Source: Candidatus Poribacteria bacterium (lineage in GTDB: Bacteria > Poribacteria > WGA-4E > JAJDTR01). From it: a stretch of DNA of 64,000 nt. The stretch lies in contig CBDCTK010000002.1 of NCBI GenBank assembly GCA_965222225.1, positions 5,216,001 through 5,280,000 of the forward strand, read 5' to 3'. A model generated the notes under the pieces. It did not search any database and was not told the DNA's origin. It saw nothing but the letters and a program-made list of their open reading frames with translations. Numbering within the stretch: position 1 is the stretch's first letter; each line of letters opens with the position of its first letter. A program made the translations under genes and the position numbers. Of the stretch, positions 19,827 through 62,959 are shown piece after piece.

Positions 19827-19833
19827 TAGCAAA

Positions 19834-35303: not shown

Positions 35304-35512
35304 GATCAACTGAGTGGATAACGAAGGCGATAGAAATCCCATACAGATCTTACCAGCCTTTGAGAGCGCCAGCGGCGATCAAGCGACTGATTAAGGAGCG
35401 CGATAGTAAATCCCGTGCGATGGAAATCTTCAGGTGTATAGCAGCAAGCCACCCTACACCAAGGCCCCGGTGCGGGATCAACCGACCGGAAAGGAAGGAC
35501 GATAGAGATTCT
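35304..35512 (+). repeat. GATCAA-hairpin repeat cluster (3 full units)
   Basis: Units at 35304, 35377, 35476, starting 1 bp after the stop codon. Confidence 0.85.
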
Positions 35513-42722: not shown

Positions 42723-45700
42723 TTATTTCGACACAAACGCCAACGGCGATGCCTCCAGCCGATTGACGAGAACCACCACATGACCATTCAACGGCTGTGC
42801 CCTAACAAGAGATGGCATCTCCTCACGGAAGGTTTGCCACAACTGACCGCCGCGGCGCTTTGCAAGCAGACTGGTCAGAAGAACGCCGTCATCACCGCCA
42901 ATCCGATGCGCCGAGATTGCCTCAATTAAGGAAAGATCGGTCTCTACGGAGGGTGAGAGCCAACCTTGGGCGATGAGACGTGTGATCCAAAGCGAGGAGT
43001 TTTCATCCACCATCATCAGCGACTTGACCGCATCTTCAGCCTGATTCTCACGGGCGTCTCCATCTTCAAGCAGTAACACCGCGTATAAAGCGGCGAGATA
43101 GGCGGAGGCATTGTTATCCTCTGGCTTCAACACCTTCATCGCATTTACCGTTGAGACGGCTTTTTCGGCAAGAGTTGTGAGTTCTGCGTCGTTGGGAACA
43201 ACTCGCCCTGCCATGCCGATACACCAAGCGGCGCGCGTCACAAGCTGCGGATCCATCCCTTCGATCTGCGGGTTGTCCCAAGCCATTTGAAGCGTGGTGA
43301 GTGCTTCAAGTTCAACGCCGCCGCGAACCGCCTCTGCCAGTAACTGCCAAGGTGCATCACCTAAACTTCTTTCGACATTATCACGTGCTTGTTTTGCTGT
43401 CGCCTTTTCACGAGTGTCGGCACGCGCTTCCCAACGTTTCACCGCTAATTGTTGCAACGCTTTCAGTGATGCACGCGTCTCGCTTGACAGGTCACGCCCA
43501 GCGACTTTCACGATATCAAGTTGGCCATTGCGCAGTGCTTCGAGAAATGACTTCACCTTTGCGTGGGTATGCGGCTCTCCGTAGACGAGCAATCGCCCCA
43601 CGTCAATCAACACCGCAGAGCCGGGATTGAGTCCCGAATCCTCCTTCTGGTCAATGGCAATTCTGACTCCATTAAGGAAGTCTGTCAGCGCGTTTTCGAG
43701 ATCTGCCTCTGAAGTGAAATTGTTAATCTCCTCCTCTGCAGGTATCGCGAGGTCGACAACAGCGTATCCCCAGGCGGAGGGCGCCGGTATACGCCGCGTT
43801 ACGCCAACTCTGATTGTGTCTGCGTCTTTCATTTGCCACGTTAGATGGTACGGCGCAAGCAGCCAATCCAGCCCTTGAATCATCGTGGCATAGCGCAGGT
43901 CAAGATATGTCACCCAAAGTTCTGGCAGATTCAGCAACTCAATGACATCTGCGAGGCTACCATTCATGAGGTCAAGTTCACATCCGCCCGCTTCGACGAC
44001 GGTATGAATTGCATCGTCAAGCGGTTGATTGCGAAGAACGAGGTCAAGTTTTCGGTTCAAACGCGGGTGGGCTTGGGCGCGTCTTTTGCCAATCTCCTCT
44101 GTCACGGTTAAAATCGCCTCGATCAGAGTGTCATCATTGCTGCCGTGCATGTCAGCTTGTAGTGCCAACACATGCTGATACCGAAGTCGTGCCGATTCGA
44201 GTTTACCCTGTTTCCGCAACTCTTTTGCCTCCGCCAACGCTTTTTGTTCATCTACGTGCCTTTTCATCGACCACTGGGCGAACAGAGTACGTCCAATCTC
44301 TTGAATACGTTCACTACTGAAGCGTGGTTGGTCATGCGGGGCATCACTGAACAGCCCCTGAGTGATCTGAATATCTTCCCTCAGTTCGCTGGTCGCGCTA
44401 ACGGATAAGGATTTCCTATCAAGACTCGGTGGTGCTTCTGTTGTGGGTGTAAAGGAAAAGGAAGCAGAAGATGACCATAGCTGCCGTGCAGCCCTGGGCC
44501 TCGCCAATGTACGCTGACTGTATCGGGCGGAATAACTCAGCCGGAGTTCTCCGATTCCACGCGACGCCTGTGCTGAAGCAGATGCTGCTTGAAACGTAGC
44601 TGCCCTTGCTGCAGGAGCTTGCCCTAAAAGGCTATCATGCTCTTCGAGAACAACACCTCCGCCAAAGACGCCATCGAACTCAACCCTAGTCGGTAACGGT
44701 ACCGGCACAAGCACCCGACGAGGCGGTTTCGCCTGTTGACTCACGAGCTGCACTTCGCTCTCATCCACCGCGACGAAACTCGTGTATTGGCTCATCAGTC
44801 GATAGGTCAGCGCTACCTGCGTAATTTCCTCAATGACTTCGGGCGTATCGGCATAGAACATCTGCGCCGATATGTCCTCAATCTTCTTCCGTGCCCACGT
44901 CTTGGAGAGAACGCCGTGTTTTGGTTGTGTACGCGGAAGTGCTACGTCCAGTGAATATGAGAGCGGTTTCCCCTCTGCGACACCTGACAATTCAATCTGT
45001 GTTCTTCCGCCCTCCGCATAGCGTCCAAACAGGATGACCGGCCTGCCTGCCCACAGCTCGGGAATTCGGCGCGGAAAGATTTCATAGACGGACAGATCAT
45101 TCCAATCAATCTGGATGTTCGCGAGTTGTGCCCGATGAATCCGATCGACAATCTGCGAGACCAACTCCTTCGGATCGGTATTGAGTTCAATAACACCAGA
45201 CATTCCTCCGCCCTGTTTCGCCACGCCATCAATCAGGAAGCGGTTGGGCGACGAACCGATGCCGATTGCCCAAAAGCGAATCTGGTCTCCGGCGCGCCTG
45301 CCGACCTCAGCAATAATCTCCGCTTCGTTGCCGATGTAGCCGTCTGTGAGCATCACGACGATACGCACCCGTTCCGGGTCTACCGGCTCGTTGAGCACCA
45401 TCCTGATGCCCTTGAGCATCTCCGTTCCGCCGCCGGCTTGAATCTGTTGTGTGAAGTTCAGGGCGCGACTGACATTCTCCTTCGTCGCTGCAACCGGTCT
45501 TTCGAACAGTTTGTTTGCATAGCCGGCAAAGGTGATGACTTGCACAGTGTCGTTCGGCTTGCTGAGGCGGAAAAAGTGACGCATCGCCTCTTTTACCTTC
45601 TCTGTCGGATGACCGCCCATCGAACCGGAAACGTCAACGAGAAAAACGACCTCGCGTGGCGGGGCTTTGGCGAGTTCAGCGTCAAGTTTCGGCTGAATCA

Positions 45701-46673
45701 TAAGCATGAAATAGCCTTGGTCCCTCCCTTTGGAGTGCGCCAAAACCGCCATCTCCGGCTTTTCACCAACGACAGCGTATTTCATCACAAAATCCTTGTT
45801 TGGAATCGAATCGGCGGGCGAAATCTCCACCACGGCGCCCGATGCTCCGATGCGCTCAAGCGTTACTTTGTGATTGGGGCTCTTGATGTCCCCAACCGGC
45901 ACCCCCGCTTCGAGCGACACCGAAAGACTTATATCGTGTCCTGTGCGATAGCCCGGCATAAGTGCTGGCGGTGTAATCCGCGAGGCATCCGGTACACGCG
46001 TCGTGTCCGGCGACCAACCTGTGCCGGACGGATCGCCCCCTTCCGTTGCTCCCTCTAATTCGCCAACTTTTCCCTTCAATTCTTTCGGAAGTTCCGGTTT
46101 CTTGGAAATCGGTGCGCCAGGAATATAACGGGGACCCACAACCATCGGGAAGTGAAATTCATAAGTGCCCATGTCGTAGTTGAGAACATCAACGTAGGAG
46201 ATTTCGATGCGAATCTCCTTGCCCGGTTTGATATTGCCGACCGACTGGGTAAAGATATTCGGTCGCTCCTGCTCAAGGAGGCTTGCCGTCGCTCCCTGAT
46301 TGATCGCCCGCTCATACATGGCACGCGCCTCATCCCGACGCTTAATCAGACCGACAACCCGTCGCTCGCCGATGACCATTGTCATATCGTCCACGGCGGC
46401 GGTATGCGGCAGCGGGAAGACATAAACCGCCTCAATCTTTTCGTCATACGGATTCTCGAACGTTTGGGTCACCGTCACGCGAGCGATGAAGCCGGAGATA
46501 ATCGCTTTGACATCTGTGTGCTTCAGCGGACATTCGACAATCTCATCTTCGGTTTTGACGCGCAACGCACCTTGGGTGACCTCCTGTTCCATCGGGTCAA
46601 TAGGCTGTGGTGTTTGTGCGAAGGCAATGCCGCCGGAAAAAATCAATATCATCAGCGAATTCAGTCCTGTCAT
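42723..46673 (-). CDS. Secreted VIT + vWA (inter-alpha-trypsin-inhibitor-like) protein with long C-terminal extension
   Basis: VIT (PLKHTDVKA...QTFENPY...EAVYVFPLP), MIDAS DVSGSMG, GGGTEM, LTDGYIGNE, LMSQYTSFVAVD. Confidence 0.9.
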   Translation of the reverse strand: MTGLNSLMILIFSGGIAFAQTPQPIDPMEQEVTQGALRVKTEDEIVECPLKHTDVKAIISGFIARVTVTQTFENPYDEKIEAVYVFPLPHTAAVDDMTMVIGERRVVGLIKRRDEARAMYERAINQGATASLLEQERPNIFTQSVGNIKPGKEIRIEISYVDVLNYDMGTYEFHFPMVVGPRYIPGAPISKKPELPKELKGKVGELEGATEGGDPSGTGWSPDTTRVPDASRITPPALMPGYRTGHDISLSVSLEAGVPVGDIKSPNHKVTLERIGASGAVVEISPADSIPNKDFVMKYAVVGEKPEMAVLAHSKGRDQGYFMLMIQPKLDAELAKAPPREVVFLVDVSGSMGGHPTEKVKEAMRHFFRLSKPNDTVQVITFAGYANKLFERPVAATKENVSRALNFTQQIQAGGGTEMLKGIRMVLNEPVDPERVRIVVMLTDGYIGNEAEIIAEVGRRAGDQIRFWAIGIGSSPNRFLIDGVAKQGGGMSGVIELNTDPKELVSQIVDRIHRAQLANIQIDWNDLSVYEIFPRRIPELWAGRPVILFGRYAEGGRTQIELSGVAEGKPLSYSLDVALPRTQPKHGVLSKTWARKKIEDISAQMFYADTPEVIEEITQVALTYRLMSQYTSFVAVDESEVQLVSQQAKPPRRVLVPVPLPTRVEFDGVFGGGVVLEEHDSLLGQAPAARAATFQAASASAQASRGIGELRLSYSARYSQRTLARPRAARQLWSSSASFSFTPTTEAPPSLDRKSLSVSATSELREDIQITQGLFSDAPHDQPRFSSERIQEIGRTLFAQWSMKRHVDEQKALAEAKELRKQGKLESARLRYQHVLALQADMHGSNDDTLIEAILTVTEEIGKRRAQAHPRLNRKLDLVLRNQPLDDAIHTVVEAGGCELDLMNGSLADVIELLNLPELWVTYLDLRYATMIQGLDWLLAPYHLTWQMKDADTIRVGVTRRIPAPSAWGYAVVDLAIPAEEEINNFTSEADLENALTDFLNGVRIAIDQKEDSGLNPGSAVLIDVGRLLVYGEPHTHAKVKSFLEALRNGQLDIVKVAGRDLSSETRASLKALQQLAVKRWEARADTREKATAKQARDNVERSLGDAPWQLLAEAVRGGVELEALTTLQMAWDNPQIEGMDPQLVTRAAWCIGMAGRVVPNDAELTTLAEKAVSTVNAMKVLKPEDNNASAYLAALYAVLLLEDGDARENQAEDAVKSLMMVDENSSLWITRLIAQGWLSPSVETDLSLIEAISAHRIGGDDGVLLTSLLAKRRGGQLWQTFREEMPSLVRAQPLNGHVVVLVNRLEASPLAFVSK

Positions 46674-47122
46674 TTTACCTCATTGTGTGTTTAGCGAGTT
46701 GGAAATTTGTGCTAAGTTTAGGGCAATAATCCAACCAAGGATTTTCGCAAATGCGAATTCTTGGATTCAAGCATTCAGGTGAGACGGTGCTTCGAACACG
46801 CGCGTTCATCGGTGTGATTTGCTGATTCCGAGGGGTTGAACTCCGGTTATCCACATAGACGATTTGGAAGGTGGATAGTTTAAGCTGCATCAGGATGTTT
46901 CGACAGATCCAGGTTTATGGAAAATGTGCGACATTCCGAGGAAGGGATTGTCAGGTCCTAGAACACATCGGAACAACGCTGGGAATGCGTGCAGAAACCT
47001 GAGTGTTTGGTAAATTCTGTCGTTCGGTACGGTTTTGTCACTTGTGAAGTAAGTTCGGAATGTGTAAAATCTTGCACCAAGTCGGAACACAACGCACGCG
47101 ATATATAGCCGGAGAAACTGTA

Positions 47123-49260
47123 ATGCCTAGGTTGATTCAAGGATACGTCGCTATCGAAAATGGAGATCGCTTGGAAGGTGTGTCGGTATCCAACGGTAGG
47201 GAGATTGTCCAAACCGATGGCCGTGGTCTGTATCAACTGTCGTGTTGCTCTGAGACTCGTTTCGTTTGTATTACCGTACCCGCGGGGTACGCGGCTGCGG
47301 ATGGGTTCTACATTGACCTGCAAACAACGTCGAACTTCGATTTCGCTCTACGGCATCACCCCGAAAGTAAGAGTACATCGTTCTCGTTTGTGCAAATTAC
47401 CGATCTCCACACCACGGTCGATGATGGTGTGTTTCTGGAACAAGATCTTGCGCAGATACATCGGGAGGTAGGTCACAAGGCTCAGTTCATTGTGGCAAGT
47501 GGCGATTTGACAGATGGCGGGCAACGGGAGGAATACAAAACCTATCTCGGCGCTATAGCAAAATCCGAGCTTCCCGTCTATCACGCTGTTGGCAATCACG
47601 ATGATCGTGCCGAAAAATGGGGAACAAATTTCATGGATGTGCTGGGACCAATGTACTACAGTTTCGACTACGGTCCTCTGCATTTCGTCGTTTACGATGG
47701 AAGGAGAAGACGACGTACTGACAGCACAGACCAGGAATGCTGGATGCGTGCAGATCTCGAATTGCAGCCTCCAAACAAGCCGGTGGCAATCATCAACCAC
47801 TACCCTTGGGGTAGCGAGTTCTACGATCAGTGGAAAGCCTACCCAATCATAGCGACCTTGTCCGGACACTGGCACTCCACTCGGCTGTTCGTGGATGGGC
47901 AGACCGTGCACTATAATACGCCTAGCCTCGGATTTGGCGGCAGCGATCAGAGCCCGCGAGCATATCGTCTATTCACCTATGAGCGTGGAAAACTGAATGC
48001 GGTAAGCCGGGCGCTGGTGTCGTCGGAGACTTTTTCCGGCATTAGTTTTCGGCCGTCCGCGGACAACGTCGCAGGTGTCCTGCATCGATTTGAGGAAACA
48101 CATCCCGAGCCTGGAGCAGATTGGTACCTATTTCACGGAAACGCACGTCGGACGGGGAGCGCCCTAATCGGACCGCACCCACCGTTGTCTTTGGCTTGGC
48201 GAGCGGGCACCGGTGGGTCAATACACATTGCCGCGCCACTGGTGGTTGAAGGATTGGTCTTCCAGTCCACGAAGAACGAGGATACACTTTCCGGCAATGG
48301 GCTTTCGGCGTTTGATGCGCGTAACGGCGCTCTGCAGTGGCGCCATACCACCAACTCCGCCATAAAGCGTGCGCCCGCCTACTGCGATGGTCGTCTATTT
48401 CTAGTGACCACAACCGGCTTGGTGCAGGCGCTTACCGCAGAAAGGGGCGAACGGCTATGGAGTTACGAGTTGGGAGACGCGTCTCGGCTCTGGGTGTATA
48501 CCGCGCCGCTAGTAGTACGCGATCGAGTGTACATCGGTGCGAATTCACGCGTCGTGGCATTAGATCAGGAAACCGGCGATGTCGTTTGGCGTCGAGATGA
48601 CCTAGTGCCGGACGATTTTCCTCCCTGTACCAACTCACCGTCTGCCTGCGGCGGATACATTGTGGTGGGGTTTTATGGACAACCGACGAATCTGATGGTA
48701 TTGGACGCCACAATCGGCAAGACGGTATGGACCAAAGCCGAGGAAATCCGTACGATATTTATTCTACGCCGGTCATTGATGAGGATGGTACGATTTACAC
48801 GGTCAGCGCTGGCGCGGTTCGAGCCTACGACTTGGAAACAGGGGCATTGAAGTGGGAGGCGCCGTTTACGCTTAATCGTGTCCGTGCAACACCTGCACTG
48901 GCTGAGGGTCGACTTTTTGTTTGTACGGGTAGCGGGACGCTGCATGCCCTTGAGGCGGAGTGCGGCAGGGAACTCTGGAAGTGGAGTGCATGCGGGAACG
49001 CGCCGTTGTTTACCCCTTACGCGCGTGAAGGGGGCGTCACGCTTGCATCACCGGTCGTGGCTGGAAACTGTGTCTACGTTGCGGCGGCGAACGGTTATCT
49101 TTATGCCCTGGACACAGCCACGGGAACGTGTGTGTGGGGACACAATCTCCAAATCCCCTTGGCTGCGTCCCCAGCCATTTCCGGCAACGGCGTTTGGGTT
49201 GGGGGCTGCGACGGGTTTGTCTACGCTTTTGCCTCGTCGGAACACATAATACTCTTGTAG
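47123..49260 (+). pseudogene. Calcineurin-like metallophosphoesterase fused to a PQQ/BamB-like beta-propeller, 1-bp frameshift
   Basis: GVSVSNGREIVQTD, QITDLH, SGDLT, GNHD, LSGHWH; PQQ-like repeats continue in ORF 48727-49260 after a shift at ~48742. Confidence 0.8.
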
Positions 49261-49265
49261 GGTGC

Positions 49266-49405
49266 GATCAACCGACTGATTAAGGAGGGCGATAGAGATC
49301 CCCTGCGATCAAGCGACTGGACAGGATCAAACGAGTGGATAACGATTAAGTGACCGAATAGGGAACGCGACAGCAAATCCCGTGCGATAGAACTCTTGCC
49401 AGCCT
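49266..49405 (+). repeat. GATCAA-hairpin repeat cluster, nested, inside a GTAGGGTGCG REP
   Basis: Units at 49266, 49307 (partial), 49325 (split) and 49344. Confidence 0.85.
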
Positions 49406-49511
49406 TTTCTCCGTGTCGTGATACCGCGACGGGAAAATTTCGGCACGCTGACATGCCCGATTACATTTTTGTCCGATAAAGGCGAACGATGTGACCCAAT
49501 CTCCGATTGAC

Positions 49512-50792
49512 CTAGCGCTCCTGCCAACGCCCCGGCTCCGGATTCTTCTGCACCTGTTGGAACAGATTCGCCCACTCGATTGAGCCGTCATCGTACCACA
49601 CTTCCAAACGTGCGCCTTCCACCTGCGCTTCCGCAATGCCCTGTTTGAAATAACTTAACCGGTCGCCTTCCATATGGATACAACTGCCATCCGGATATAC
49701 TACGGTCTTGATAATCCGAGGCTCTGGATGTATGTAACGCCCCTCCGCGTCGAGTTTTTCGTCGGGCACGCGGTATTTTTCGATGGCGTCTTCATCAACT
49801 TCAACACCGAGACCGGGAGCGTCCGGAACTTTGTGACATCCGTCCACAACTTCGATTGGCTTCTTGAGCAAATGGTGACTGTACAGATTAATGCAGGTAA
49901 TCGCAGGCCAAGTAGCGTGGGTAAGTACCGCGCCCAGATGGCCCGCCCAGGTTGTCGTCAGTCCGTTCCCCACGATCTGCAACCAGAAGGGGAGTTCCGC
50001 CTCCGCGCTAAGAGACCCTTGACGAACCACGATGGACTTCCCACCACCGATGACATACCCATCACAAACAGACTCACGGATGTTGACCTTGTAGGGTGGT
50101 GAACCGAAGTGCATCGCAATCGGTCGGTCTATGGCTTGGCGAATCCGCTTGTTGTCCGCCACATTCTCTTGTGGTATCGGTGATTCAAACATCGCCACGT
50201 TGTCGTATTTCGCCAACTTCGCCATGATAGGAATGGCGGTTGCCGCATCTTGGAAAGAACCGTTTGGATCCAGATCGAGTTTGAAATCCGCCGGCACAAC
50301 CTTGGAAATCGCATCAACCTGTTCGACGATATCCCACCACGGGCGCGGTTTATTCTTGAAACTGGTGTAACCGCTTTCCACGGCATCTCTGGCTTCAGCC
50401 GCCCAGTTTTCCGGCGAGGCGTCAATCGACCACCACGAAATTGGCGCTGTGTCTCTCACCTTCGTCCCCAGTAATTCGTAGACCGGCACCTCCAGAATCT
50501 TTCCCACCACGTCAAAGAGTGCCATCTGCAAACCCGCGCCGAGAGAGTCGTCGTTCATCAATTTGGCGGGGCTTTCCCCTAGCACACGCTGTACGCTTTC
50601 GTCGGTAACACGTCCATAGGTGTAGTGGATGACCGTCTCCCCCCATCCCACATGCCCGGTGTCCGTGGTCACCTTGCACAGTTCCAAAATGGACCAGTTG
50701 TACACATTGGATACGCTCTCGATAGTGATTTGGTTCTGCCGAGGCGTAAACGGTACGTCAACAATAGTGCGTTCGACATTAACAACTTTCAT
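49512..50792 (-). CDS. Mandelate racemase/muconate lactonizing enzyme (enolase superfamily)
   Basis: TDTGHVGWGE, MALFDVVGK...PVYELLG, FKNKPRP, LDPNG, FESPI, VPDAPGLGVEVDE. Confidence 0.9.
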   Translation of the reverse strand: MKVVNVERTIVDVPFTPRQNQITIESVSNVYNWSILELCKVTTDTGHVGWGETVIHYTYGRVTDESVQRVLGESPAKLMNDDSLGAGLQMALFDVVGKILEVPVYELLGTKVRDTAPISWWSIDASPENWAAEARDAVESGYTSFKNKPRPWWDIVEQVDAISKVVPADFKLDLDPNGSFQDAATAIPIMAKLAKYDNVAMFESPIPQENVADNKRIRQAIDRPIAMHFGSPPYKVNIRESVCDGYVIGGGKSIVVRQGSLSAEAELPFWLQIVGNGLTTTWAGHLGAVLTHATWPAITCINLYSHHLLKKPIEVVDGCHKVPDAPGLGVEVDEDAIEKYRVPDEKLDAEGRYIHPEPRIIKTVVYPDGSCIHMEGDRLSYFKQGIAEAQVEGARLEVWYDDGSIEWANLFQQVQKNPEPGRWQER

Positions 50793-51033
50793 CTGTACCC
50801 CTTTCTCCGCTTATAGTCATTACAATAAGGATTTCGCATATAGGACTTAGGTTGTTCGGTTTGTAGTAGCATAATTTATTGTGCGTCTCCTGTAGGAGCG
50901 ATCTCCCGATCACGACTTCCTGTAGCGAGCAAAGTTCACCTTTACAGTTGGTTTGTCGTAATAATCTTCAATCATTAAATCCCCCTGGTCGGTCCTACTG
51001 GATTGACAAATCCAGCAAATCTTTGTTTAACCC

Positions 51034-51115
51034 GTAGGTTGGGTTGAACAATCAAGCGACTGAATAGGGAATGCGATAGTGACTCCCTGCGATAGGAATC
51101 CTAGTGAAACCCAAC
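51034..51115 (+). repeat. REP-like GTAGGTTGGGTT...AACCCAAC hairpin with GATCAA-hairpin units in its loop
   Basis: Stem halves at 51034-51049 and ~51103-51115 flank the unit at 51050 and an orphan 3' half. Confidence 0.8.
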
Positions 51116-51142
51116 TATCCAGCTGAAAACCCACAGCATAGC

Positions 51143-52567
51143 CTAGAATGGGTTGAGTTCGTTTTTAAGTTCTTCCACCGCATTCATGGCATCCTCCAAT
51201 TCCTGTCTAGGTATGTTCACAATGGTAGCATGGCTGAGCGGGTTAAGGATAATGCTTCGACCCAATTCGATTTCGTGAATGAGAGTTTGTTTTAGTTTGC
51301 AAGTGACTTTGTTTTTGATTTTGATGGAATCCCAGAAATCCTGACTGTCCAGTTTCTTCGGGTCGCTGCGATACCGGACCGGGAGACGTTCATCATCGCA
51401 ATACTTTTTTATTATTGTTTCAAAAGCCGTGCGGATGTAGATTGCACAAGCTTTGTAGTCGCAGGCATCAAGATGTTCCTGTGCCTTCTCAAGATACGCC
51501 TTATTTTCCACATAGACCGGCATTTCAAATTTGTCTGTTTGTGCGAAATAGAATTCAACGGCTTTCCATTGCCTGTTCGCGGAGGCCCACTGTTTGACAA
51601 TCTCATACCACGCCTTATCGTAAGTCATCAGAAAAATCTGGTACTCTGAGAAATATTTCTTCAGAATGTCAAGTACCGGGAAACGATTTGACATGTCCAA
51701 GCCAATCAACACGTCGTCAAGAGCGAGAATCTTCAACTCGCTGTCCGGTTGAAGTAAGAACCCTGCGAAATAGAGGGATAAAGCAATCGCAGACAGTTTC
51801 GCTTCGTTCAAGAAACTGTGATACGCGGCGAGATCTCTGTCAAGAAACTTCACCTTTAGTGAAATCTGCTGATTATCTAGCGTCTTGTCGTGACGGTTGT
51901 ACTTAATCTTATCAAAGCCCAGGTCCAGAATAACATTGTATCCAAACTCGTTGAGGATTTCAGATGTCAACGTCTGTAGTTCTGCTAGCTTACCGGTCAA
52001 CTCATTATTGAACGATTCAACTTGTTCTTCAAGTTCTGCAATCTGTGTGGTTGCGTTTCGGCGAGGACGTGGTGCTTTTCGTAGGTCATCCCAGTCGTCG
52101 ACGAGACTTCGATTGGATTTGTCGCCAATAGTATTACCTAAGAGATTGTCAATCAGTAGCACGAAGACATTCACGTCCTCTTCATCGTGATTGACATTAT
52201 GCGTCTTCAGAAGCGCCTTGTAATCTAGGAAGCCCTTTGCCTTTGATGCATCAATAATACGTTGGTTCTCCGTCTCTCTAACAGTTCGCGACCATTTGTA
52301 GATACACTCATTTGGAACTGAATCCGCCTGGAGATGGAGCTTAGTGTATCCATCATCCTTAATGAAGATGTTCTGATGATTTTCAAATCGGGCAGAGGTA
52401 TCCTCACTGGATTCAAGAAACGACTTTAATGCCAGATACAGCGACGATTTTCCGCTCCCATTCTCGCCGTAGACCAGCAGATTTTTCCCTGCTTTATGAA
52501 GGTCAATCTCCAAGGTTCCACGGAAGGCTCTGAAGTTTTTAGTCTTGATTTTGGTGATTCTCACCAC
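51143..52567 (-). CDS. ABC/AAA-family ATPase with HEPN-like C-terminus (RloC/PrrC-like architecture)
   Basis: KNFRAF, GENGSGKSS, coiled coil, degenerate signature FLNEAK, LALDDVLIGLD..NR; C-terminal IRTAFE...RSIILNPLSH. Confidence 0.8.
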   Translation of the reverse strand: MVRITKIKTKNFRAFRGTLEIDLHKAGKNLLVYGENGSGKSSLYLALKSFLESSEDTSARFENHQNIFIKDDGYTKLHLQADSVPNECIYKWSRTVRETENQRIIDASKAKGFLDYKALLKTHNVNHDEEDVNVFVLLIDNLLGNTIGDKSNRSLVDDWDDLRKAPRPRRNATTQIAELEEQVESFNNELTGKLAELQTLTSEILNEFGYNVILDLGFDKIKYNRHDKTLDNQQISLKVKFLDRDLAAYHSFLNEAKLSAIALSLYFAGFLLQPDSELKILALDDVLIGLDMSNRFPVLDILKKYFSEYQIFLMTYDKAWYEIVKQWASANRQWKAVEFYFAQTDKFEMPVYVENKAYLEKAQEHLDACDYKACAIYIRTAFETIIKKYCDDERLPVRYRSDPKKLDSQDFWDSIKIKNKVTCKLKQTLIHEIELGRSIILNPLSHATIVNIPRQELEDAMNAVEELKNELNPF

Positions 52568-55500
52568 TTGTCCTCAATGATACGAATCGGTCTTAGACTA
52601 TCCTGAAAGAAAAGGTTGACCCGAACTGGATGTTCTTTATGGTACAGGCGCTCATATAGAGCGCGGAATGCAAACATTTTATCTCCGTGAATCTCTTTCA
52701 CTTCCGACAACTGCTCCGCCATCAGATGTTTGAATAAATCTCTGTTACCGCCCTGGAGCACATCGGGCATGTAGAACTCATAAAACAGCCCGTTGATTAT
52801 ACGCTCGAAATATTTGAGCATCAGGAAATCGCGAGCATGGGCTAAATCCTTGCCGCTCGTTGTCGGTTGGTTTTGAAGATAGATGAGGTACTCGACAATC
52901 TTGCGAACCAAGTTTTTCTGCTCTGCATTGAGGTCGGGAACGGGAATCTGCTTTATAAAGCCGCCGCGCGCTTGAAGTTCGCCCGGGCCTGACTGGTCAG
53001 AAACTTGGTAATAGAACCACTCCACGGTGCGCGTATTGAGTAAACCGCACAACCACGTTTGCTCCGTGGGGATGATGTAGCAAGTAGAGCCGCAAAAATA
53101 TCCATCGGCCTCAACCGCAAAGGTTTGGGTGTTATAAAGGTTCGGACAGACCAGCTTCGGTACCGCATAGCGCTCAATCTCCTCGACGGATGCTTGGAGC
53201 TCGTACCATCCCCCTTTGCCTTTTCTCTTGCTAAGAGAATCTCGGTGTTTTTCTAGGTGTCTTCGAATGGCTGGATAGGCGTTTATCTCTATACCACGGT
53301 AGGCAAAGATTAACCACTGCTCCGGTGGTTCCACTTGCCAGCGTCTTATGTCCCGCCCATGCAGGATTGGCTTCAGAATATCTTCGGACGAAGGGTGTTC
53401 TGCAATCAGTTTATCTCGCGTTTTGCCGTCTACTACAAACACATCAGTCGGTGCTGTTTTGATTCCGAAAAAGGGCTGCGTCTTGATATATTCTCCCAAC
53501 GGCGTACCAGTATCGCGAAGTCTCTTCTCCAAATTCAACATTTCTGGAGAATCATCCAGAGAACGAGAAGACTTTTCATCGACGGTTATGGCTTTTTCTT
53601 TCATGGGATAACGGTTCCTAAAACCTTGGCGAACCAACATCGCGATATCTTCCGGCAACTTAACCTGATTTGCCCGCTCAAAGGCGGCAATGTTTTTGTA
53701 ATCGTTGCGAAACGCCGCGCCAATATCCACACCTTTCTTCTTGGCAGTGATCAGATTTGCTTTGGCTTTGTCCCATTCTTTCAGGTGCAACCAAACTTCA
53801 GCGCGATTGTAATAGGCGTTAGCATAATCTCGTTTTATCGCGACATCATACTCTTCAATTGCGCGATTGTACTCACCGTTTTTGTAATAAGCAACTCCCC
53901 GATTGTTGTAGGCTACAGCAAGCGCCGGGTTGAGTTCAATGACTTTGCTATAGTCCTTGATGGATCGGTCAAATTCGCGTTGTTGATAATAAGCAATAGC
54001 ACGATTGTGATAGGCGAGGAAGCAATTAGGTTTCAGTTCTATTGCCTTATTATAGTCCTTGATGGCCCGATCAATTTCGCCCTTGTTGCGATACGCAGCA
54101 CCGCGGTTGTTATATGGTGCGGGATTCCAAGGTTCCAGTTCTATTGCCCTAGTACAGTCGATGATAGCGCGATCGTTCTCGCCTTTACTACGGTAAGCAC
54201 CTCCACGATTGCTGTAGGCCGCGGCATAGTTCTGTTTGCGCGCTATTGCTTTGCTAAAATCCTCAATAGCCCGGTCATGTTCACCTTTGTTACTGTTGAG
54301 CGTCCCACGATTGTTATAAGGCTCGGGATCGTCAGGATTGAGTTTTATCGCTGTGTTGTAATCTTTGACAGCTAGGCCAATCTTCCCTTGTTCATCGTAA
54401 GCAATGCCTCGGCTGTTATATGCGTTCGCATAATTGGGATTGAGTTGTATTGCTTTGTTAAAGTCTTTGATTGCCCGATCAACTTCATCCTTTTCGTGGT
54501 AAGCAATGCCGCGGTTGTTATAGGGATCAGCACAATAGGGATTGAGTTTAATCGCCACGTTAAATTCGTCAATTGCGCGATTGATTTCACCATGGTCACG
54601 GTAAGCAACCCCTCGATTATTATAGGCATTGGCATAATCCGGTTTGAGTTTGATAGCCATGTTAAAGTCTTTAATAGCTCGGCCATAATTACCTTTATCG
54701 TAGTAAACTGCACCACGATTATTGTATGGTTCGGCAAGGCCTGGGTTTAATTGTATTGCTGTATTAAAGTCTTTGATGGCTTGGTCTACCTCGCCCTTAT
54801 CGCGGTAAGCATTACCCCGATTGTTATAAGCTATGAAAGAGTCGGAATTTCGATCTATCGCTTTGGTGAAGTCTTTTATGGCCCTTTTGATGTCGTGCTT
54901 ATTGCTGTAAACCATTCCGCGATTATTATAGGCCATGGCAAAATCGGGTTCGTGTTTAATTGCAGTGTTAAAGTCTTTTATGGCCCGGTCATAATTACCT
55001 CTATCACAGTATGCATTGCCGCGATTATAGTAGGCGTTGGCATCGTCGGCCCTAAGTTCTATCGCGGCATTAAAATCCTTGATAGCAAGGTCATACTCGC
55101 CCAGTTTGTGATAGGCAATCCCTCGGTTGTTGTAGGGCTTGTCCTCATTGGGATTACGTCGTATCGCGTGATTAAAGTCCTTGATAGCAAGTTCAACCTC
55201 GTCTTTATCGACGTAAACAGTGCCGCGATTGTTATAGGCGGCGGCATCACCAGGATTGAGTTGTATCGCTTGATTGAAGTCCTTGATGGCAAAGCCATAC
55301 TCACCTTTGCTGTTATACGCAACCCCGCGGTTGTTGTATGCGTCGGTATCACGGGGGTTGAGTTCAACCGCCAGTGAGTAAGCTTCTATAGCCCCGTCTA
55401 TTTGCCCAAGCCTCAGAAGAAAATCACCTTGTTGGAACGCCGATTCAGCGCGTAACTCTCGTTCAGACATCCTAGGTGCCGAATCCTCCTGAACTAGCAT

Positions 55501-56004
55501 TTTGCGAACCGCTTTCCGGGTACCCTCCACCACATTTTGCCAGCCTTTGCTCCTAGGATTCCATTCGTTGAGAGGTTTGCCTTCGGCAGGGAGAACTTGG
55601 ATGTCACCGAGTATCTGGGGTTCCCATCTGTTAGGGTGCAAGCCCTCGGCGGACGGAGCCTTAGTACTTCTCAATTGATGATTCTCCCAGTCGCACGCCT
55701 CAAGGATAATCGGAATAACCCGTGTGTCTGTTTTTAACGCCTCTGCCAACTCCTTGTTGCAATTATTAGAGGCAAGACTTGCAGCCGAGACTAAGTATAG
55801 GAGAATATCCGAATTGGCTAGGTTATCGGCAATGTCTCTATACCACTCATCGCCCGGGAGAATTTCGTTGTCGTCCCAAAGTTCTATCTCGCCTCTGTTT
55901 TCCATCACGGCAAGGCGAGTTCTCAATTCCTTCCTTTCTTCTTTATCGTTATGTGAATAAGTAATGAATGCTTTTGGTCCTGCGCCCATTCTCATGTTCT
56001 CCAC
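52561..56004 (-). CDS. TIR domain - about 17 TPR repeats - TaqI_C-like DNA target recognition domain fusion
   Basis: AFITYSHND...WDDNEILPGDEW...SNNCNKEL...VIPIIL (TIR); 34-aa AYNNRG repeats; GIKT...LKPILHGRDIRRW...YPAI..HL...WYELQ...PKLV...LCGLLNT...IKQIPVP (type IIG R-M specificity region). Confidence 0.9.
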   Translation of the reverse strand: MENMRMGAGPKAFITYSHNDKEERKELRTRLAVMENRGEIELWDDNEILPGDEWYRDIADNLANSDILLYLVSAASLASNNCNKELAEALKTDTRVIPIILEACDWENHQLRSTKAPSAEGLHPNRWEPQILGDIQVLPAEGKPLNEWNPRSKGWQNVVEGTRKAVRKMLVQEDSAPRMSERELRAESAFQQGDFLLRLGQIDGAIEAYSLAVELNPRDTDAYNNRGVAYNSKGEYGFAIKDFNQAIQLNPGDAAAYNNRGTVYVDKDEVELAIKDFNHAIRRNPNEDKPYNNRGIAYHKLGEYDLAIKDFNAAIELRADDANAYYNRGNAYCDRGNYDRAIKDFNTAIKHEPDFAMAYNNRGMVYSNKHDIKRAIKDFTKAIDRNSDSFIAYNNRGNAYRDKGEVDQAIKDFNTAIQLNPGLAEPYNNRGAVYYDKGNYGRAIKDFNMAIKLKPDYANAYNNRGVAYRDHGEINRAIDEFNVAIKLNPYCADPYNNRGIAYHEKDEVDRAIKDFNKAIQLNPNYANAYNSRGIAYDEQGKIGLAVKDYNTAIKLNPDDPEPYNNRGTLNSNKGEHDRAIEDFSKAIARKQNYAAAYSNRGGAYRSKGENDRAIIDCTRAIELEPWNPAPYNNRGAAYRNKGEIDRAIKDYNKAIELKPNCFLAYHNRAIAYYQQREFDRSIKDYSKVIELNPALAVAYNNRGVAYYKNGEYNRAIEEYDVAIKRDYANAYYNRAEVWLHLKEWDKAKANLITAKKKGVDIGAAFRNDYKNIAAFERANQVKLPEDIAMLVRQGFRNRYPMKEKAITVDEKSSRSLDDSPEMLNLEKRLRDTGTPLGEYIKTQPFFGIKTAPTDVFVVDGKTRDKLIAEHPSSEDILKPILHGRDIRRWQVEPPEQWLIFAYRGIEINAYPAIRRHLEKHRDSLSKRKGKGGWYELQASVEEIERYAVPKLVCPNLYNTQTFAVEADGYFCGSTCYIIPTEQTWLCGLLNTRTVEWFYYQVSDQSGPGELQARGGFIKQIPVPDLNAEQKNLVRKIVEYLIYLQNQPTTSGKDLAHARDFLMLKYFERIINGLFYEFYMPDVLQGGNRDLFKHLMAEQLSEVKEIHGDKMFAFRALYERLYHKEHPVRVNLFFQDSLRPIRIIEDKW

Positions 56005-56098
56005 AATAGCGAATTATTAGAAGTTCGTCCGAATCGCAAGTTACCAGAGATTGCAGAATTTCACGGATTAAGTTCAACCAACGTTAGGACTCGCTTTT

Positions 56099-56261
56099 AA
56101 TCCGCGTAATCAGTTTAATCCGATCAACTGACTGAATAACGAGGGATCAAGCGACTGAACAAGGAGCGCGATAGAGATCCCATAGTAAATCCCGTAGTGA
56201 CCGATCAACTGAGTGGTCAACGAAGGCGATAGCAGATCCCGATAGAAATCCCATTCAGACA
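56099..56261 (+). repeat. AATCCG...ATTCAGACA element filled with nested GATCAA-hairpin units
   Basis: Units at 56122 (split), 56145, 56203; an unfilled relative is at ~19928-19969. Confidence 0.8.
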
Positions 56262-56337
56262 AGCGATAGTACATCGCCCCCTAAAATCGCAAGAACTTCA
56301 GTGTTTGACGTGCTCCATCAGTCATTGAATGATCCGC

Positions 56338-57033
56338 TTAGGATGATTTCTCATGCTCATACCAATCTCGCGGATAATACCCAATCACCAAGCGCCCATG
56401 ATCAAGATCATACATCGGCCAGTTGCTATCCGAAACCCCAAACACAATCTCATACTTCACGTCGGGGTGGATAATGGCACGCTCGAACACCCTCACCGCA
56501 TCGCCGTGACCGAGATGGTGCGGGTGTTCGGGCTTTGGCCTGTTGGCTCTGAAGTTGCCGATCCGCACCCCCACGAATCCGATGTCATACTGGCTCGAAT
56601 ACGAATATCCCATAGCCTCTCCGAACACTTTGCTCACCGTGTAATGACCAACCGGGCAAGGCGTCATATCAACCGTACGGCGTACCTTCGTGTAAGACGG
56701 TCCGAGCACACCTGCGCGGCTCGCATAAGCAATGCGGCGCACGCCATTCCGAACGGATGCTTCAAACATGTTGTAAGTTCCGATGAGATTGCTCTGAAGT
56801 ACGCCTTCCCAGCCATGGTCGATGCCGGTTAGATGGATGACCGCATCCATACCTTGGGTCGCTCGGAGCATCGTGTCAAAGTCGGCGACATCGCCGATGA
56901 TTGTGTCTTCAAGATCGGGCATCGGTTGGCGGTCTAAACCGCGAATGGCGTACCTATCCTTCATTCCCTTCACGAGTACCGAGCCAATCGCCCCCGCCGC
57001 GCCGGTGATTAAAACTTTAATCTTCTCTTCCAT
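56338..57033 (-). CDS. NAD-dependent epimerase/dehydratase (uronate dehydrogenase-like)
   Basis: ITGAAGAIG, YTVSKVFGE, VRIG, FGVSDS, GYYPRD. Confidence 0.85.
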   Translation of the reverse strand: MEEKIKVLITGAAGAIGSVLVKGMKDRYAIRGLDRQPMPDLEDTIIGDVADFDTMLRATQGMDAVIHLTGIDHGWEGVLQSNLIGTYNMFEASVRNGVRRIAYASRAGVLGPSYTKVRRTVDMTPCPVGHYTVSKVFGEAMGYSYSSQYDIGFVGVRIGNFRANRPKPEHPHHLGHGDAVRVFERAIIHPDVKYEIVFGVSDSNWPMYDLDHGRLVIGYYPRDWYEHEKSS

Positions 57034-57154
57034 TACTACCTCTTGGATTGTACGACTTCAGATTTGGAATATCTCACTAGTTAAACGTGGCAATTCCAAG
57101 TCGCTCTGAATCCTGACTAATCCGGAACTAGGATTTGCTTTTGCACCGCCCCTA

Positions 57155-58306
57155 TTAGCTCCTACCTATGCGTCGGTCCTCTGCCTCTAGCCATTCGTTG
57201 TAGGGTCTGGGCATCTTCTCTGGAGCGGGCAAGCCGTTTTCCCGCCGCCAACGCAGCAGCGGGTGTTCTCGGTGTTGCTGCGGTAAGTCTACGCGATTGC
57301 CATACGCCGCGGATTCGAAAATGCCCATCATAATTTCAATATTGTGCTGTCCCTCCGCACCGCTGCATTCGTGATCGCGATTTTCGTCTAAGGCGCTAAC
57401 GTGCTCTTCGACAAACCAGTAATCGTCGATGGAGGCGGGGCTGGATCGGTCATAGTGTTCCGGATAGAGTGGCGCCAACGCTTCCCAGCCATCCGGTTCA
57501 AACGACTGTGTCAACCGCCACGCGCCTCCTTGAATGAGAAGCCCGGTTTTCCCCAGCAATCGTCCTTCAGTCCCGACAATCTCCATCATGGTGGAAGTCG
57601 TTGACGGGAGACGGTGCTGCAAAAGGTTCGCTGTAACGTTATTGTCAAAGTGAAGCGTCGCCGTGATGCGTTCTCCGGCAATCGTTCCCATTCCGTGCGG
57701 TGACGAAATAACGTCCTCAGGTGTAATGAGATGGTTGTTTGTTAATGCCGTGGCGGAAACGGTGCGGCAATGACCCGCGAACTTGAGCATATCATTGAGT
57801 TGGTGTGTCCCGATATTCATCAATCCGTAACCGCCGTAGTAGACCTTGCCGCGGCTGTTGATATAGCACAATTCGCCAATGCGGCCCTCTGTAAACGCCT
57901 TGTACGTTGCCCGCATATAAGCGCCAACGCGGCCCTGATGATGAACGGCTATGCGAACTCCCTTTTCCTTCGCTTTTGCCACCACCGCATCGGCTTGCTC
58001 AAGGTCAACACACATCGGCTTTTCAACATCGACATGGACGCCGTGTTCCAGCACGCGCATGCAGAGATCGTAGTGAAACTCGGTTCCCGTCGGTATGGCC
58101 ACGATATCGGGTGCGGTCTGGCGAATCATCTCATCCAAGTCGGTAAAGCGCGCGGTTACCCCCAATTCGTCACCGAGTGTGTCTAGTCGATCTCGGATTA
58201 GGTCGCACAGCGCTACGACTTCGGTGTGCGGGTGGGCATGATACGCGCGCGCAGCCGCGGTGCCGCGTCCACGACAGCCCAAAATCGCAATTCGATACGT
58301 TTTCAT
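57155..58306 (-). CDS. Gfo/Idh/MocA-family oxidoreductase
   Basis: AILGCRGRG, VDVEKPM, LMNIGTH. Confidence 0.88.
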   Translation of the reverse strand: MKTYRIAILGCRGRGTAAARAYHAHPHTEVVALCDLIRDRLDTLGDELGVTARFTDLDEMIRQTAPDIVAIPTGTEFHYDLCMRVLEHGVHVDVEKPMCVDLEQADAVVAKAKEKGVRIAVHHQGRVGAYMRATYKAFTEGRIGELCYINSRGKVYYGGYGLMNIGTHQLNDMLKFAGHCRTVSATALTNNHLITPEDVISSPHGMGTIAGERITATLHFDNNVTANLLQHRLPSTTSTMMEIVGTEGRLLGKTGLLIQGGAWRLTQSFEPDGWEALAPLYPEHYDRSSPASIDDYWFVEEHVSALDENRDHECSGAEGQHNIEIMMGIFESAAYGNRVDLPQQHREHPLLRWRRENGLPAPEKMPRPYNEWLEAEDRRIGRS

Positions 58307-59091
58307 ACGGTTTCACCCAATGCTTTATCGAACTCTTGGATGCTGTTCTTCAAGACATTCGTTAACTCGAAATCGCCGCGATACGCCAATAACTGTGCTC
58401 CCAGTTCGCGAAGTTCCGTTATCTGCTCCGGTGTGCCGGCGGGCATGCCCCAAACGATGTTATGCCTGCGAGCGACTTCAGCGACCCGACAAATCGCCGT
58501 GTCAAGTGTTATCCCAGCGTTGGGTTCAACCCGATCAAGGCGTAGAGCGAGATCGCCGGGGCCCACAAAAAGCGCGTCGATTCCCGGCACGGATGCAATC
58601 TCGTCCGCGTTCTCAAGTGCTTCGAGTGTCTCAATCTGGACGACGACGAAGGTCTCACGATTAATGTCATCGGAATAGGCGCTGTTCGGACGAAAAACGT
58701 CAAGACCAAAGTCCGCATCCAGACCTGACCCGTCCAACCCGCGATTGCCCAACGGAGGAAATTTCACGGCATTCACAACACGCCGAGCGGTTGCCGCATC
58801 CGAAATAAGGGGCATCATCACAGCCGTCGTGCCATCCTCAAGATAGCGATAGAGGCGGGAATGTTCCTGTGTGGGAGGTCGCACCATACAGTCGATATCA
58901 TTGTAATGACACAGCGCCAACAAACTTTGAACCTCGCGGTCGGACATCGTCCGATGCTCCAGATCCAGCCAGATAAGGCCGTGACCGACATGTGCCGCAT
59001 GACGCACATAAAACGGGATGTAGTGCCCCAGACCGCATACACGAGCACACCTGCCCTCCCGGAATTTCTTCAACGTCTTGCTTTCTCTCAT
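58303..59091 (-). CDS. HpcH/HpaI aldolase family protein
   Basis: WLDLEH, KFPPLGNRG, VQIETLEALENADEIASVPGIDALFVGPGDL; 4-bp overlap with the downstream gene. Confidence 0.9.
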   Translation of the reverse strand: MRESKTLKKFREGRCARVCGLGHYIPFYVRHAAHVGHGLIWLDLEHRTMSDREVQSLLALCHYNDIDCMVRPPTQEHSRLYRYLEDGTTAVMMPLISDAATARRVVNAVKFPPLGNRGLDGSGLDADFGLDVFRPNSAYSDDINRETFVVVQIETLEALENADEIASVPGIDALFVGPGDLALRLDRVEPNAGITLDTAICRVAEVARRHNIVWGMPAGTPEQITELRELGAQLLAYRGDFELTNVLKNSIQEFDKALGETV

Positions 59092-59293
59092 GTTTTGTTC
59101 CTATTTCATGAAACCTTCAGAGCCTATTCGAAACCGAGTTTTTTCTTCAAAACTCGGTTTCTTCCTTACGCAATGTTGTAGAGTGGGCACTGCCCACCAG
59201 TCTTTGAAAGCCCTTGGTGAAAATGCTCAATGCAGCTATTCTGCAACCCAAATGACCAAAACAGACTCTACCACCCATCATCCAAACAGGCGC

Positions 59294-60280
59294 CTAATTA
59301 TCATCCATAACTGCCTGAATCATCGCCTTGATGTAACCGAACTCGTAAGCAAACGCTTGACGATTACTCTCCGGATCCTTATGCCCCGGGGCGTGATCGG
59401 GCACAACCATGTGTTCGTAGCCAACCTCTTTGAGCGCCTGCATGTTACGGTGCATATTCATCGCCCCTTCATCGGGCCACACTTCCTGAAATTTGTTGCG
59501 CCCGCCAACAATGTTCCGAAAATGGCACACAAATATCTTCTTGCGGCTGCCCAAGTAACGAATAATCTCGGGAACCTCAGTTCTGGGGTCTTCCACACTC
59601 TCCGCCATGCAGCCTAGGCACAGGTTGACGCCGTGATAGGGACTTGGGTAAATCTCTATAAAACGCTTGAAACCGTTGGCGCCGCCAAGTACCCGGTCCA
59701 CACCACGGTGACCGGGCGGTAGCCACGGATCACAAGGATGACAAGCCAACCTGACTTTGCACTCCGTTGCCACCGGAATCACCCGTTCAAGGAAATATGT
59801 GATGCGTTCCCAATTCATCTCGGCGGTGACAGGTGTCTCGAATCTCGGTTCACGGTCTTTGGCTTTTTCCAAATCCCACGTGCTATAAATGGACCCGCCG
59901 CGTCCGGGAGGTTCGCTTTCGGTACGTTGGTGTTCCATTTCGCAAAGCAGATATTTGACTGCGGGGATCCCTGCCTCCGCCGCTTGTCGAATCATGTCAC
60001 AGACGAGATCGATCTCCTTGTCCCCTTCCTCGTAATTCCCGAGCATAAAGTTGGGTATCTCACCCCCATTCACATTGAGCAGCGAGGTAGGCAGCCTGAC
60101 CATCTCCATGTCAATCCCGAATTGGGCGCACTTCTCCTTTTTCTCCACCAGCTCCGCGACATCCCAGCCGTAAGCGCGATGGAAGGTGATGAAGTTCTCA
60201 TTCTTGTTGAACACGCCGTGTCTCGCCAAGTATTCCAAATCCATGTCCGATGTGTTGAACTGCTGTGTGCCGACGTGCAT
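59294..60280 (-). CDS. uxuA: Mannonate dehydratase (UxuA family)
   Basis: WERITYFLERVIPVA...LACHPCDP, NLCLG, HFRNI, PDEG, VPDHAP; ATG 60280 after GAGGAG. Confidence 0.8.
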   Translation of the reverse strand: MHVGTQQFNTSDMDLEYLARHGVFNKNENFITFHRAYGWDVAELVEKKEKCAQFGIDMEMVRLPTSLLNVNGGEIPNFMLGNYEEGDKEIDLVCDMIRQAAEAGIPAVKYLLCEMEHQRTESEPPGRGGSIYSTWDLEKAKDREPRFETPVTAEMNWERITYFLERVIPVATECKVRLACHPCDPWLPPGHRGVDRVLGGANGFKRFIEIYPSPYHGVNLCLGCMAESVEDPRTEVPEIIRYLGSRKKIFVCHFRNIVGGRNKFQEVWPDEGAMNMHRNMQALKEVGYEHMVVPDHAPGHKDPESNRQAFAYEFGYIKAMIQAVMDDN

Positions 60281-62613: not shown

Positions 62614-62684
62614 CGTGGAACGCACGCAAAGTAGCAGAAACGCCGATTCTCTGCGGTGATTTCATGTTGTAGGGCGCGCACTGC

Positions 62685-62848: not shown

Positions 62849-62959
62849 TCTCTCCAAATCACGACCTATCGTCGAGAATCGGAATTCCCTCCTACCGGGG
62901 ATATACCGTTTCCGTTTTCCGGCGCGAACAATGGGCCCGAGACAAAAAAGGCAAAACGT

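Follow-up and report, generated by a model that had tools for sequence, protein, structure and literature searches.

A 2008 report by Elhai and colleagues (Genome Res 18:1484) is said to have described SDR1-8, dispersed repeats of 21-27 nt in heterocystous cyanobacteria, and to have noted that these small dispersed repeats (SDRs) form a hairpin with compensatory changes and occur as self-nested copies, by a mechanism that was reportedly left unexplained. Small palindromes tolerated in frame inside open reading frames (ORFs) are also familiar as the Rickettsia palindromic elements, for which we know of no report of self-nesting. The relevant section of PMC4390886 places the insertion of SDR5 precisely between the third and fourth base of HIP1, GCG^ATCGC (here and below, the caret marks a junction), and the passages of PMC5861425 that treat SDRs report them only in Nostocaceae. 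Repetitive extragenic palindromic (REP) hairpins are noted as preferred landing sites of IS1397/ISKpn1-type elements in references listed in PMC3116915. According to the parts of the two accounts concerned with mechanism, TnpAREP acts on single-stranded DNA only, with low cleavage specificity, and performs strand transfer, with a 3'-OH able to prime synthesis (PMC3333891), and insertion of IS608 takes place 3' of a short flank sequence, creates no duplication and is linked to the replication fork (PMC5027513). Here we describe a 64,000-nt stretch of a Candidatus Poribacteria metagenome-assembled genome (MAG; contig CBDCTK010000002.1, positions 5,216,001 to 5,280,000, "the window") and the hairpin repeat that it contains, "the unit": a repeat of 36 bases that inserts into other hairpin repeats, into itself, and in frame into genes. 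The unit proves to be a genuine mobile hairpin of very small size that has moved recently; it is of the SDR/REP kind, occurs in a new phylum and follows well-defined insertion rules.

Like the SDRs, as these have been described, the unit is a very small dispersed hairpin with compensatory changes and self-nesting; it differs in length (36-37 nt, compared to a reported 21-27 nt for SDRs) and in its host (Poribacteria rather than Nostocaceae). We refer to the MAG under study as G000, to its 5.6-Mb contig as C2, and to related genomes by similar numbers. Nesting is seen in the window at 49257-49404, where a sequence-only reading of this DNA had proposed that a unit is interrupted by a complete second unit and resumes with GT-GCGATAG, the GT being the pairing partner of its AC. 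This description is correct (49326-49395), and the locus reads as follows.

49257-49266, plus strand: left arm (GTAGGGTGCG) of the GTAG-headed host REP hairpin, family H
49267-49302, plus strand: complete unit 1 in REP site 1 (GCG^CAC), with core 49267-49295, tail AGATC, then CC
49301-49307, plus strand: host REP middle CCCTGCG (CACTGCG when unfilled), which shares its first bases with the terminal pyrimidines of unit 1
49308-49325, plus strand: head-only partial unit ATCAA-GC-GA-CT-GGACA-GG in REP site 2
49326-49344, plus strand: 5' part of the outer unit, ATCAA-AC-GA-GT-GGATA-AC-G (19 bases; event C2:5265344)
49345-49381, plus strand: inner complete unit, with core 49345-49373 and tail CAAATC + CC
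49382-49395, plus strand: 3' remainder of the outer unit, GT-GCGATAG-AACTC
49396-49404, plus strand: right side of the host REP, TT-GCCAGCC (CACCAGCC when unfilled)

The inner unit, which carries two substitutions (ATTAA, GCGACAG), lies within the second GA of the outer unit, directly after its G. No remainder for the partial head at 49308-49325 was found at this locus, which is thus not purely a case of clean nesting. The composite of outer and inner unit recurs at C2:1947296 and in relatives, indicating that nested composites are copied onward whole.

Excision of 736 complete units throughout the genome over a grid of boundaries restored 68 interrupted outer units with all four pairs intact, representing 57 distinct combinations of site, outer stems and inner stems. 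All 68 fell on one diagonal of the grid, corresponding to removal of the unit plus 1-2 bases, and displaced-excision controls yielded 17 restorations over 90 cells (about 0.2 per cell). Among 188 interrupted heads, breaks occurred only after core positions 10, 12, 17-19, 21-23 and 25-26, with 12, 17-19 and 23 dominant; the base preceding the inner unit was G in nearly all listed examples and A in a few, and the remainder followed the inner unit immediately in 116 of the 188. Neighbouring units proved unrelated, with 5 of 235 adjacent pairs sharing their variable part compared to 2.2 expected, which argues that the nesting did not arise by slippage. Both orientations were present in 62 of 223 multi-unit clusters, and arrays were otherwise direct or nested. 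A comparison of head and tail counts as a sign of 3' truncation was dropped, since tails are broken up by nesting at G22, which skews the count.

Profiling of 735 strict copies gave the consensus sG^ATCAA-NN-GA-NN-GrATA-NN-GA-NN-GCGATAG-(A)rATC-YY (36-37 nt), with conservation running from three bases upstream of the unit through ATCCC downstream and random sequence outside. The distance from ATCAA to ATC was 34 nt in 390 of 619 copies and 35 nt in 216, and the pyrimidines following ATC numbered two in 341 copies and four in 169. G000 contains 737 strict copies and 1,156 at up to three substitutions, compared to 13 in a reversed-genome control, and the commonest octamers of the genome are pieces of the unit. 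Across 944 copies, comprising 512 distinct 29-mers, the four variable pairs were complementary in 94-97%, compared to 50-79% after column shuffling, and the pair types were 3,203 Watson-Crick, 415 G.T and 53 A.C. The large excess of G.T over A.C indicates that one strand of the unit is the folding strand. This sense strand forms a hairpin of three tiers, ATC:GAT followed by two 2-bp stems, with invariant internal loops AA/GC and GA/GA and the terminal loop GrATA; the common fold was obtained in 291 of 300 sampled copies with RNA parameters, at -4.6 kcal/mol for the sense strand, -1.5 for the antisense strand and -2.5 for shuffles. What is constant is the single-stranded bases and the pairing itself, with the paired bases free to vary, the signature of a structure that is read by a protein. 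The unit has no coding capacity and carries no promoter-like feature, and 859 of 1,010 units lie outside crude ORF calls. Features of miniature inverted-repeat transposable elements find no support, with ends of the form ATCAA... and ...ATCC, no terminal inverted repeats and no target-site duplication seen, and Rfam returned no match in the window at gathering score (the sole match was chance-level, at 15 bits against a threshold of 126).

Insertion targets were GTAG-type REP hairpins, other units, terminator-like hairpins and occasionally ORFs. The main hosts were the GTAG-headed REP families H, H2, H4 and H5, together with H3 (GCCCCAGnGGGGCGACAGGTG), which lacks a GTAG head; family H (GTAGGGTGCG-CACTG-CGCACC) has 189 short-loop copies in G000, of which 121 have exactly that loop. 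Within REPs, units occupy GCG^CAC (twice in H), GGGG^CGAC (H3), CG^AT in the H4 loop and ACA^CAG (H2), and further sites are a terminator-like hairpin and TAATCCG^TG. The 5' junction, G^ATCAA, is exact: position -1 was G in 676 of 735 copies and position -2 was C or G in 652, giving a common rule of insertion directly 3' of G, usually CG or GG, which covers the sites inside ORFs too. Minus-strand units follow the same rule on the other strand, as at 32598, where a unit stands after CTATCG within a plus-strand unit. The 3' end, in contrast, consists of ATC plus 0-4 pyrimidines. The sequence-only reading had described junctions without duplication and with 0-3 host bases lost; we found no target duplication at any empty/filled pair or junction examined, and the loss at the 3' junction amounted to 0-2 host bases, or 4 in one coding case. 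Its suggestion that extruded hairpins are the target stands in so far as hairpin repeats are hit, but other sites are hit as well, including some inside ORFs. The GCG^ATC junction reported for SDR5, in the part of PMC4390886 that describes it, is the same as the junction heading most units here. HIP1 itself, tried as an SDR5-like target, was rejected, as it shows no enrichment (117 copies found compared to 85 expected).

Comparison with relatives revealed the empty-site alleles that the sequence-only reading had called for, which are present at REP 49257, REP H2 51051 and several ORFs. The REP at 49257 was unfilled in all six alignable same-genus genomes. In a 531-aa ORF, one site was empty in G005, G003, G009 and G001, carried an additional 36 nt in G002, and carried an additional 72 nt in G000, the latter consisting of the unit seen in G002 plus a nested second unit. 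A 2,419-aa ORF in G000 contained a unit as well as a second hairpin insert of 37 nt; neither was present in G005, with flanks 98-99% identical, and the target had already read GGATCAAG (a 7-8 nt match) before insertion. Two more ORFs held a unit (+33 and +36 nt) that was absent from all compared relatives or paralogues. Insertions into ORFs gave a net gain of 33-36 nt with the frame kept, and 59 units are located 90 nt or more within called ORFs. Activity has been recent enough to differ between genomes with 98-99% identical flanks, and insertion can add 11-12 residues in frame. At window site 62808, filled in four species, the stems differed (CC/GG, GC/GC, CT/AG).

Several further observations arose from these comparisons. 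The compensated stem differences at 62808 suggest that units at a fixed site were replaced or converted, and not that they drifted slowly. The 37-nt hairpin insert (CGACGATTC...GAATCGCCC) beside the unit in the 2,419-aa ORF, at C2:2921310-2921350 (L136, about 545-585), is unrelated to the unit and may represent another micro-element family. About 15 kb at C2:2558845-2574309 is 99% identical to G005 C1:3771001-3791000, compared to roughly 80-96% for the rest in the stretches compared; this shared region, which includes the gene Y1b (99% identical) and is enlarged in G005 by two inserts, of 1.4 and 3.2 kb, suggests recent exchange. Among public reads, 20 of 24 listed runs contain part of the window, and four were compared with 44001-64000; the short Logan contigs, including those of an RNA run, end or chimerise at repeats, so that alleles, circle junctions and transcripts are unreadable in them.

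Units within REPs lie predominantly on the head strand (184:8 in H, 22:1 in H2, 88:1 in H3 and 79:33 in H4), even though REP H is palindromic and both of its strands present identical TGCG^CA sites. Orientation relative to neighbouring ORFs was unbiased (309 co-directional versus 273). Relative to GC skew it was strongly biased, both at cluster level (105 and 238 versus 188 and 92, p=6e-20) and over bins of 100 kb (rho=-0.54, p=3e-5); the bias persists in units distant from REP heads (p=2e-6), and the GTAG REP families show one of the same sign. The sense strand lies preferentially on the C-rich strand. Along C2, the sign of GC skew reverses eight times or more, for which rearrangements, assembly joins or unusual replication are possible sources. 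The coupling to the REP head strand and the orientation with GC skew point to a single-strand, replication-linked process, and a single-strand mechanism fits these two properties together with the excess of G.T over A.C pairs.

We surveyed 176 Poribacteria genomes from 31 genera for the unit, allowing one mismatch, and found high copy numbers confined to two genera. All 10 genomes of genus g1, G000 included, hold 600-1,303 copies, and all four genomes of g4, which belongs to a different family, hold 206-212; one g6 genome holds 19, six genomes hold 1-5 and 155 hold none. A control pattern gave zero everywhere. G000 encodes five Y1_Tnp matches and a truncated RayT-like gene. Of these, the IS200-like Y1a (C2:3080258-3080728; 65.8 bits against a cut-off of 55) has units on both sides and was considered as the cognate transposase, but was rejected when its orthologues proved to be flanked by inverted H3 REPs instead; the unit 20 nt past its stop codon interrupts an H3 REP. 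The flanking REPs are H4 for Y1c, H5 for Y1d and H for the truncated RayT-like gene, and units beside Y1 genes are secondary insertions into the REPs of those genes. An RT-like ORF (resembling reverse transcriptases) of 670 aa with a YVDD motif lies at C2:4499560-4501572; it is present in 5 of 9 same-genus relatives, 1 of 4 g4 genomes and 1 of 3 g6 genomes, and is interrupted by stop codons in several of the same-genus relatives. Y1b, Y1c, Y1d and the RT-like gene were each tried as a phyletic match to the unit, and none fits. Some Y1 gene was present in all five further unit-bearing genomes checked. TnpB was searched for and not found, and there was no TnpA with matching ends. As a separate observation, at least four REP families (H3, H4, H5 and H) each flank their own Y1/RAYT-like gene in inverted orientation (C2:3080258-3080728, 3088808-3089350, 3727535-3728017 and 1545569-1545977), and two of these genes are broken in G000, one by an in-frame TAG and the other by an N-terminal truncation.

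These properties can be compared with those of the REP and IS200/IS605 systems. Like REPs and their compound forms, BIMEs and REPINs, the unit is a short, mostly intergenic imperfect hairpin with hundreds of copies, strand specificity and an essential stem mismatch, and it resides in a genome that also holds genuine GTAG REPs and Y1 genes; the cleavage of single-stranded DNA, strand transfer and 3'-OH priming described for TnpAREP in part of PMC3333891 would fit it. Unlike REPs and REPINs with their REP-associated tyrosine transposases (RAYTs), however, the unit has the head G^ATCAA rather than GTAG, which belongs to the host REPs H, H2, H4 and H5, and it has no flanking cognate RAYT. Its copies are mostly direct and nested rather than arranged as REPIN/BIME inverted doublets, and its stems are hypervariable where those of REPs are near-identical. 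As it inserts into REPs, the unit behaves as a REP parasite. It shares with IS200/IS605 elements and their non-autonomous derivatives, the palindrome-associated transposable elements, in so far as the mechanistic sections of PMC5027513 and PMC3333891 cover these, insertion without duplication 3' of a fixed short sequence that afterwards always flanks the left end, a strand-specific hairpin and an orientation that seems tied to replication. IS200/IS605 elements, in contrast, have two subterminal hairpins and precise ends, whereas the unit has one hairpin, a ragged 3' end and a loss of target bases, a target of only 1-2 nt, and an orientation bias of opposite sign if the leading strand is G-rich. 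IS1397/ISKpn1 likewise use REPs as landing sites but are full-size insertion sequences with transposases, and the Rickettsia palindromic elements, which share in-frame insertion into ORFs, are larger. A literature search for descriptions of REPs or miniature inverted-repeat elements in Poribacteria found nothing relevant.

The proposal of the sequence-only reading that the unit is a minimal non-autonomous element inserting without duplication into hairpin repeats and into itself is supported, and a single-strand mechanism fits; its assignment of the movement to an HUH-type enzyme encoded outside the window stands as a proposal, and targeting restricted to hairpins did not hold. The reading also withstands both refutations that it had named: relatives do carry empty-site alleles, and the arrays are not accounted for by slippage or tandem duplication. 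We favour the view that the unit is a non-autonomous mobile micro-element of 36-37 nt whose catalyst, by analogy with known systems, is probably an HUH Y1 nuclease of the RAYT/IS200 kind. Several such Y1 enzymes are encoded in the genome, and it is mainly into their cognate REPs that units insert. A nick would be made 3' of a G, the 5' end of the element would be joined by the enzyme to the 3'-OH thus freed, and closure on the 3' side would be less exact. In a more specific and tentative form of this proposal, the unit may be a hyperparasite of the REP/RAYT system and the smallest class of site-directed transposon: a 36-nt hairpin that would be nothing but a recognition fold, would use nicks made by RAYT-type HUH enzymes on the GTAG strand of REPs (and on units), and would integrate as single-stranded DNA at the fork.

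A number of results weigh against a Y1 enzyme as the mover. No cognate enzyme was found, as every examined Y1 gene is flanked by a different REP family; no Y1 lineage or RT matching the distribution of the unit in g1 and g4 was found; and Y1 genes are also present in unit-free genomes. The HUH assignment therefore rests on analogy. Insertions have a ragged 3' junction and cost the target a few bases, whereas the "peel and paste" of HUH enzymes is precise, and the fold is marginal under DNA energy parameters (-0.9 kcal/mol). If the leading strand is G-rich, the sense-strand bias is opposite to the lagging-strand-template rule of IS608, although with so many changes of skew sign the direction of replication is inferred rather than known. 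Among 102 interrupted heads that could be tested stringently, 45 had an immediate remainder and 57 did not. Finally, the target in the 2,419-aa ORF that already carried GGATCAAG suggests that homology to the unit head may guide insertion.

This last result bears on an alternative that requires no dedicated enzyme, which we consider unlikely: template switching during replication, in which a nascent ...CG end stalled at a hairpin would re-anneal by GCG/ATC microhomology to another unit, copy it and return. Such switching would account for a 5' junction that falls exactly on a shared (C/G)G, in some cases extended by ATC or by a longer stretch, as in the 7-8 nt match of the ORF case and in GCG^ATC of REP H4, and for the ragged 3' junction with its few lost target bases; hairpin targets stall forks, and orientation tracks GC skew. 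The donors are not nearby, however, given how rarely neighbouring pairs are alike, and the strictly kept unpaired bases and covarying stems imply recognition of a folded form. Template switching would also have to explain the 184:8 choice of strand in a palindromic REP and the restriction of high copy numbers to two genera when hairpins and polymerases are universal.

We regard as somewhat less likely again the possibility that units are functional sites maintained by the host, such as protein-binding sites or DNA/RNA modules like REPs, selected locus by locus, with their spread a by-product of REP/RAYT activity. Conserved bases kept while stems covary, an orthologous unit in four species with different compensated stems, and the persistence of the family across a whole genus are what such selection would produce. 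It sits poorly with the absence of an orientation preference toward neighbouring genes, with units landing in ORFs and in one another, with frequent presence/absence differences at orthologous sites, and with the lack of the unit in most Poribacteria.

Mobility through RNA, in which a small transcript would be reverse-transcribed at a nick (target-primed), seems very doubtful. RNA parameters give a far better fold than DNA parameters, the unit has one exact and one ragged end, and the genome has one RT-like gene, but orientation is independent of the transcription direction of neighbours, no promoter-like feature is carried by the unit, and the RT-like gene is present in 5 of 9 same-genus relatives (broken in several), in one g4 genome and also in one g6 genome. 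Finally, the view that nesting merely looks so through slippage and tandem duplication within arrays, for which a small number of 23-nt tandem copies that are truly identical (three at C2:1543606, among others) and the period-23 arrays detected by TRF at 16297 and 56122 speak, can be dismissed for the bulk of cases, as neighbours in an array resemble each other no more than random pairs do, a complete and unrelated inner unit is followed by the complementary partner of the outer unit's stem, and single units stand at orthologous sites that are empty in relatives.

Elsewhere in the window, units occur at the following positions.

4512-4546, plus strand: unit in REP H site 1
4580-4614, plus strand: unit followed by ACAGGTATGTAG, resembling filled H3 junctions
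12440-12612, plus strand: clustered units with tail pieces, lacking in G005, G003 and G002 at the orthologous spacer
16289-16341, minus strand: two units at a 23-nt period
23698-23732, plus strand: unit in a complete REP H
23766-23846, plus strand: units inside a terminator-like hairpin (AAACCG^...AAAACTCGGTT), with an unfilled paralogue at 59130-59161
32568-32645, plus strand: unit split by a minus-strand unit at 32598-32626, placed after CTATCG on the other strand
35305-35512, plus strand: three units (35305, 35378, 35477)
51051-51103, plus strand: unit and tail piece in REP H2 (GTAGGTTGGGTTGAACA^), at a site unfilled in G003
56123-56261, plus strand: nested and tandem units flanked by TAATCCG and ATTCAGACA; G005 lacks them, and an unfilled paralogue lies at 19952-19969
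62686-62722, plus strand: unit in REP H site 2; REP and unit are both absent in G001, G002 and G003
62808-62836, minus strand: unit whose orthologous site is occupied in G001, G002 and G003 with different compensated stems

The REP-like hosts that the sequence-only reading had seen split by units at 4502-4556 and 51034-51115 are both REP hairpins, and the resemblance that it drew between 23761-23861 and the unfilled 59130-59161, and between 56117-56261 and the unfilled 19952-19969, holds. Its statement that three minus-strand units each follow a plus-strand partial unit applies to 32598-32626 and 62808-62836 but not to 16289-16317. The terminator-like hairpin at 59130-59162 (GAAACCGAG...CTCGGTTTC), whose paralogue at 23761 hosts units, is itself highly repeated: in four metagenome runs its contig depths sum to 3,800-7,000, compared to about 40 for its neighbours. 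The window also contains, at 2700-19900, a tandem array of about nine paralogous genes of roughly 1.8 kb with internal repeats of about 165/333 nt (repeat families D1-D6, D9 and D12), with units in several of the spacers between genes, and, at 53830-55350, fifteen head-to-tail 102-nt repeats (34 codons each) that probably belong to a repeat protein encoded on the minus strand.

The unit is among the smallest mobile elements seen; carrying only a recognition structure, it marks a lower size limit of mobile DNA. If it is indeed a hyperparasite of REPs and RAYTs, it would supply the missing mechanism for the "very small mobile elements" of SDR type, unexplained since 2008. The family lends itself to experiment: it has about 1,100 copies, its 5' junction is exact, it has a defined fold in which the unpaired bases do not vary, it obeys strand rules with respect to both REPs and replication, and empty, single and double alleles occur naturally, some of them in coding sequence. 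Unit repeats also break short-read contigs and create spurious ORFs, which matters for assembly and annotation. In these genomes of sponge symbionts, known only as MAGs, REP hairpins are themselves colonised, and layers of selfish DNA alter intergenic regions, and occasionally proteins, between species.

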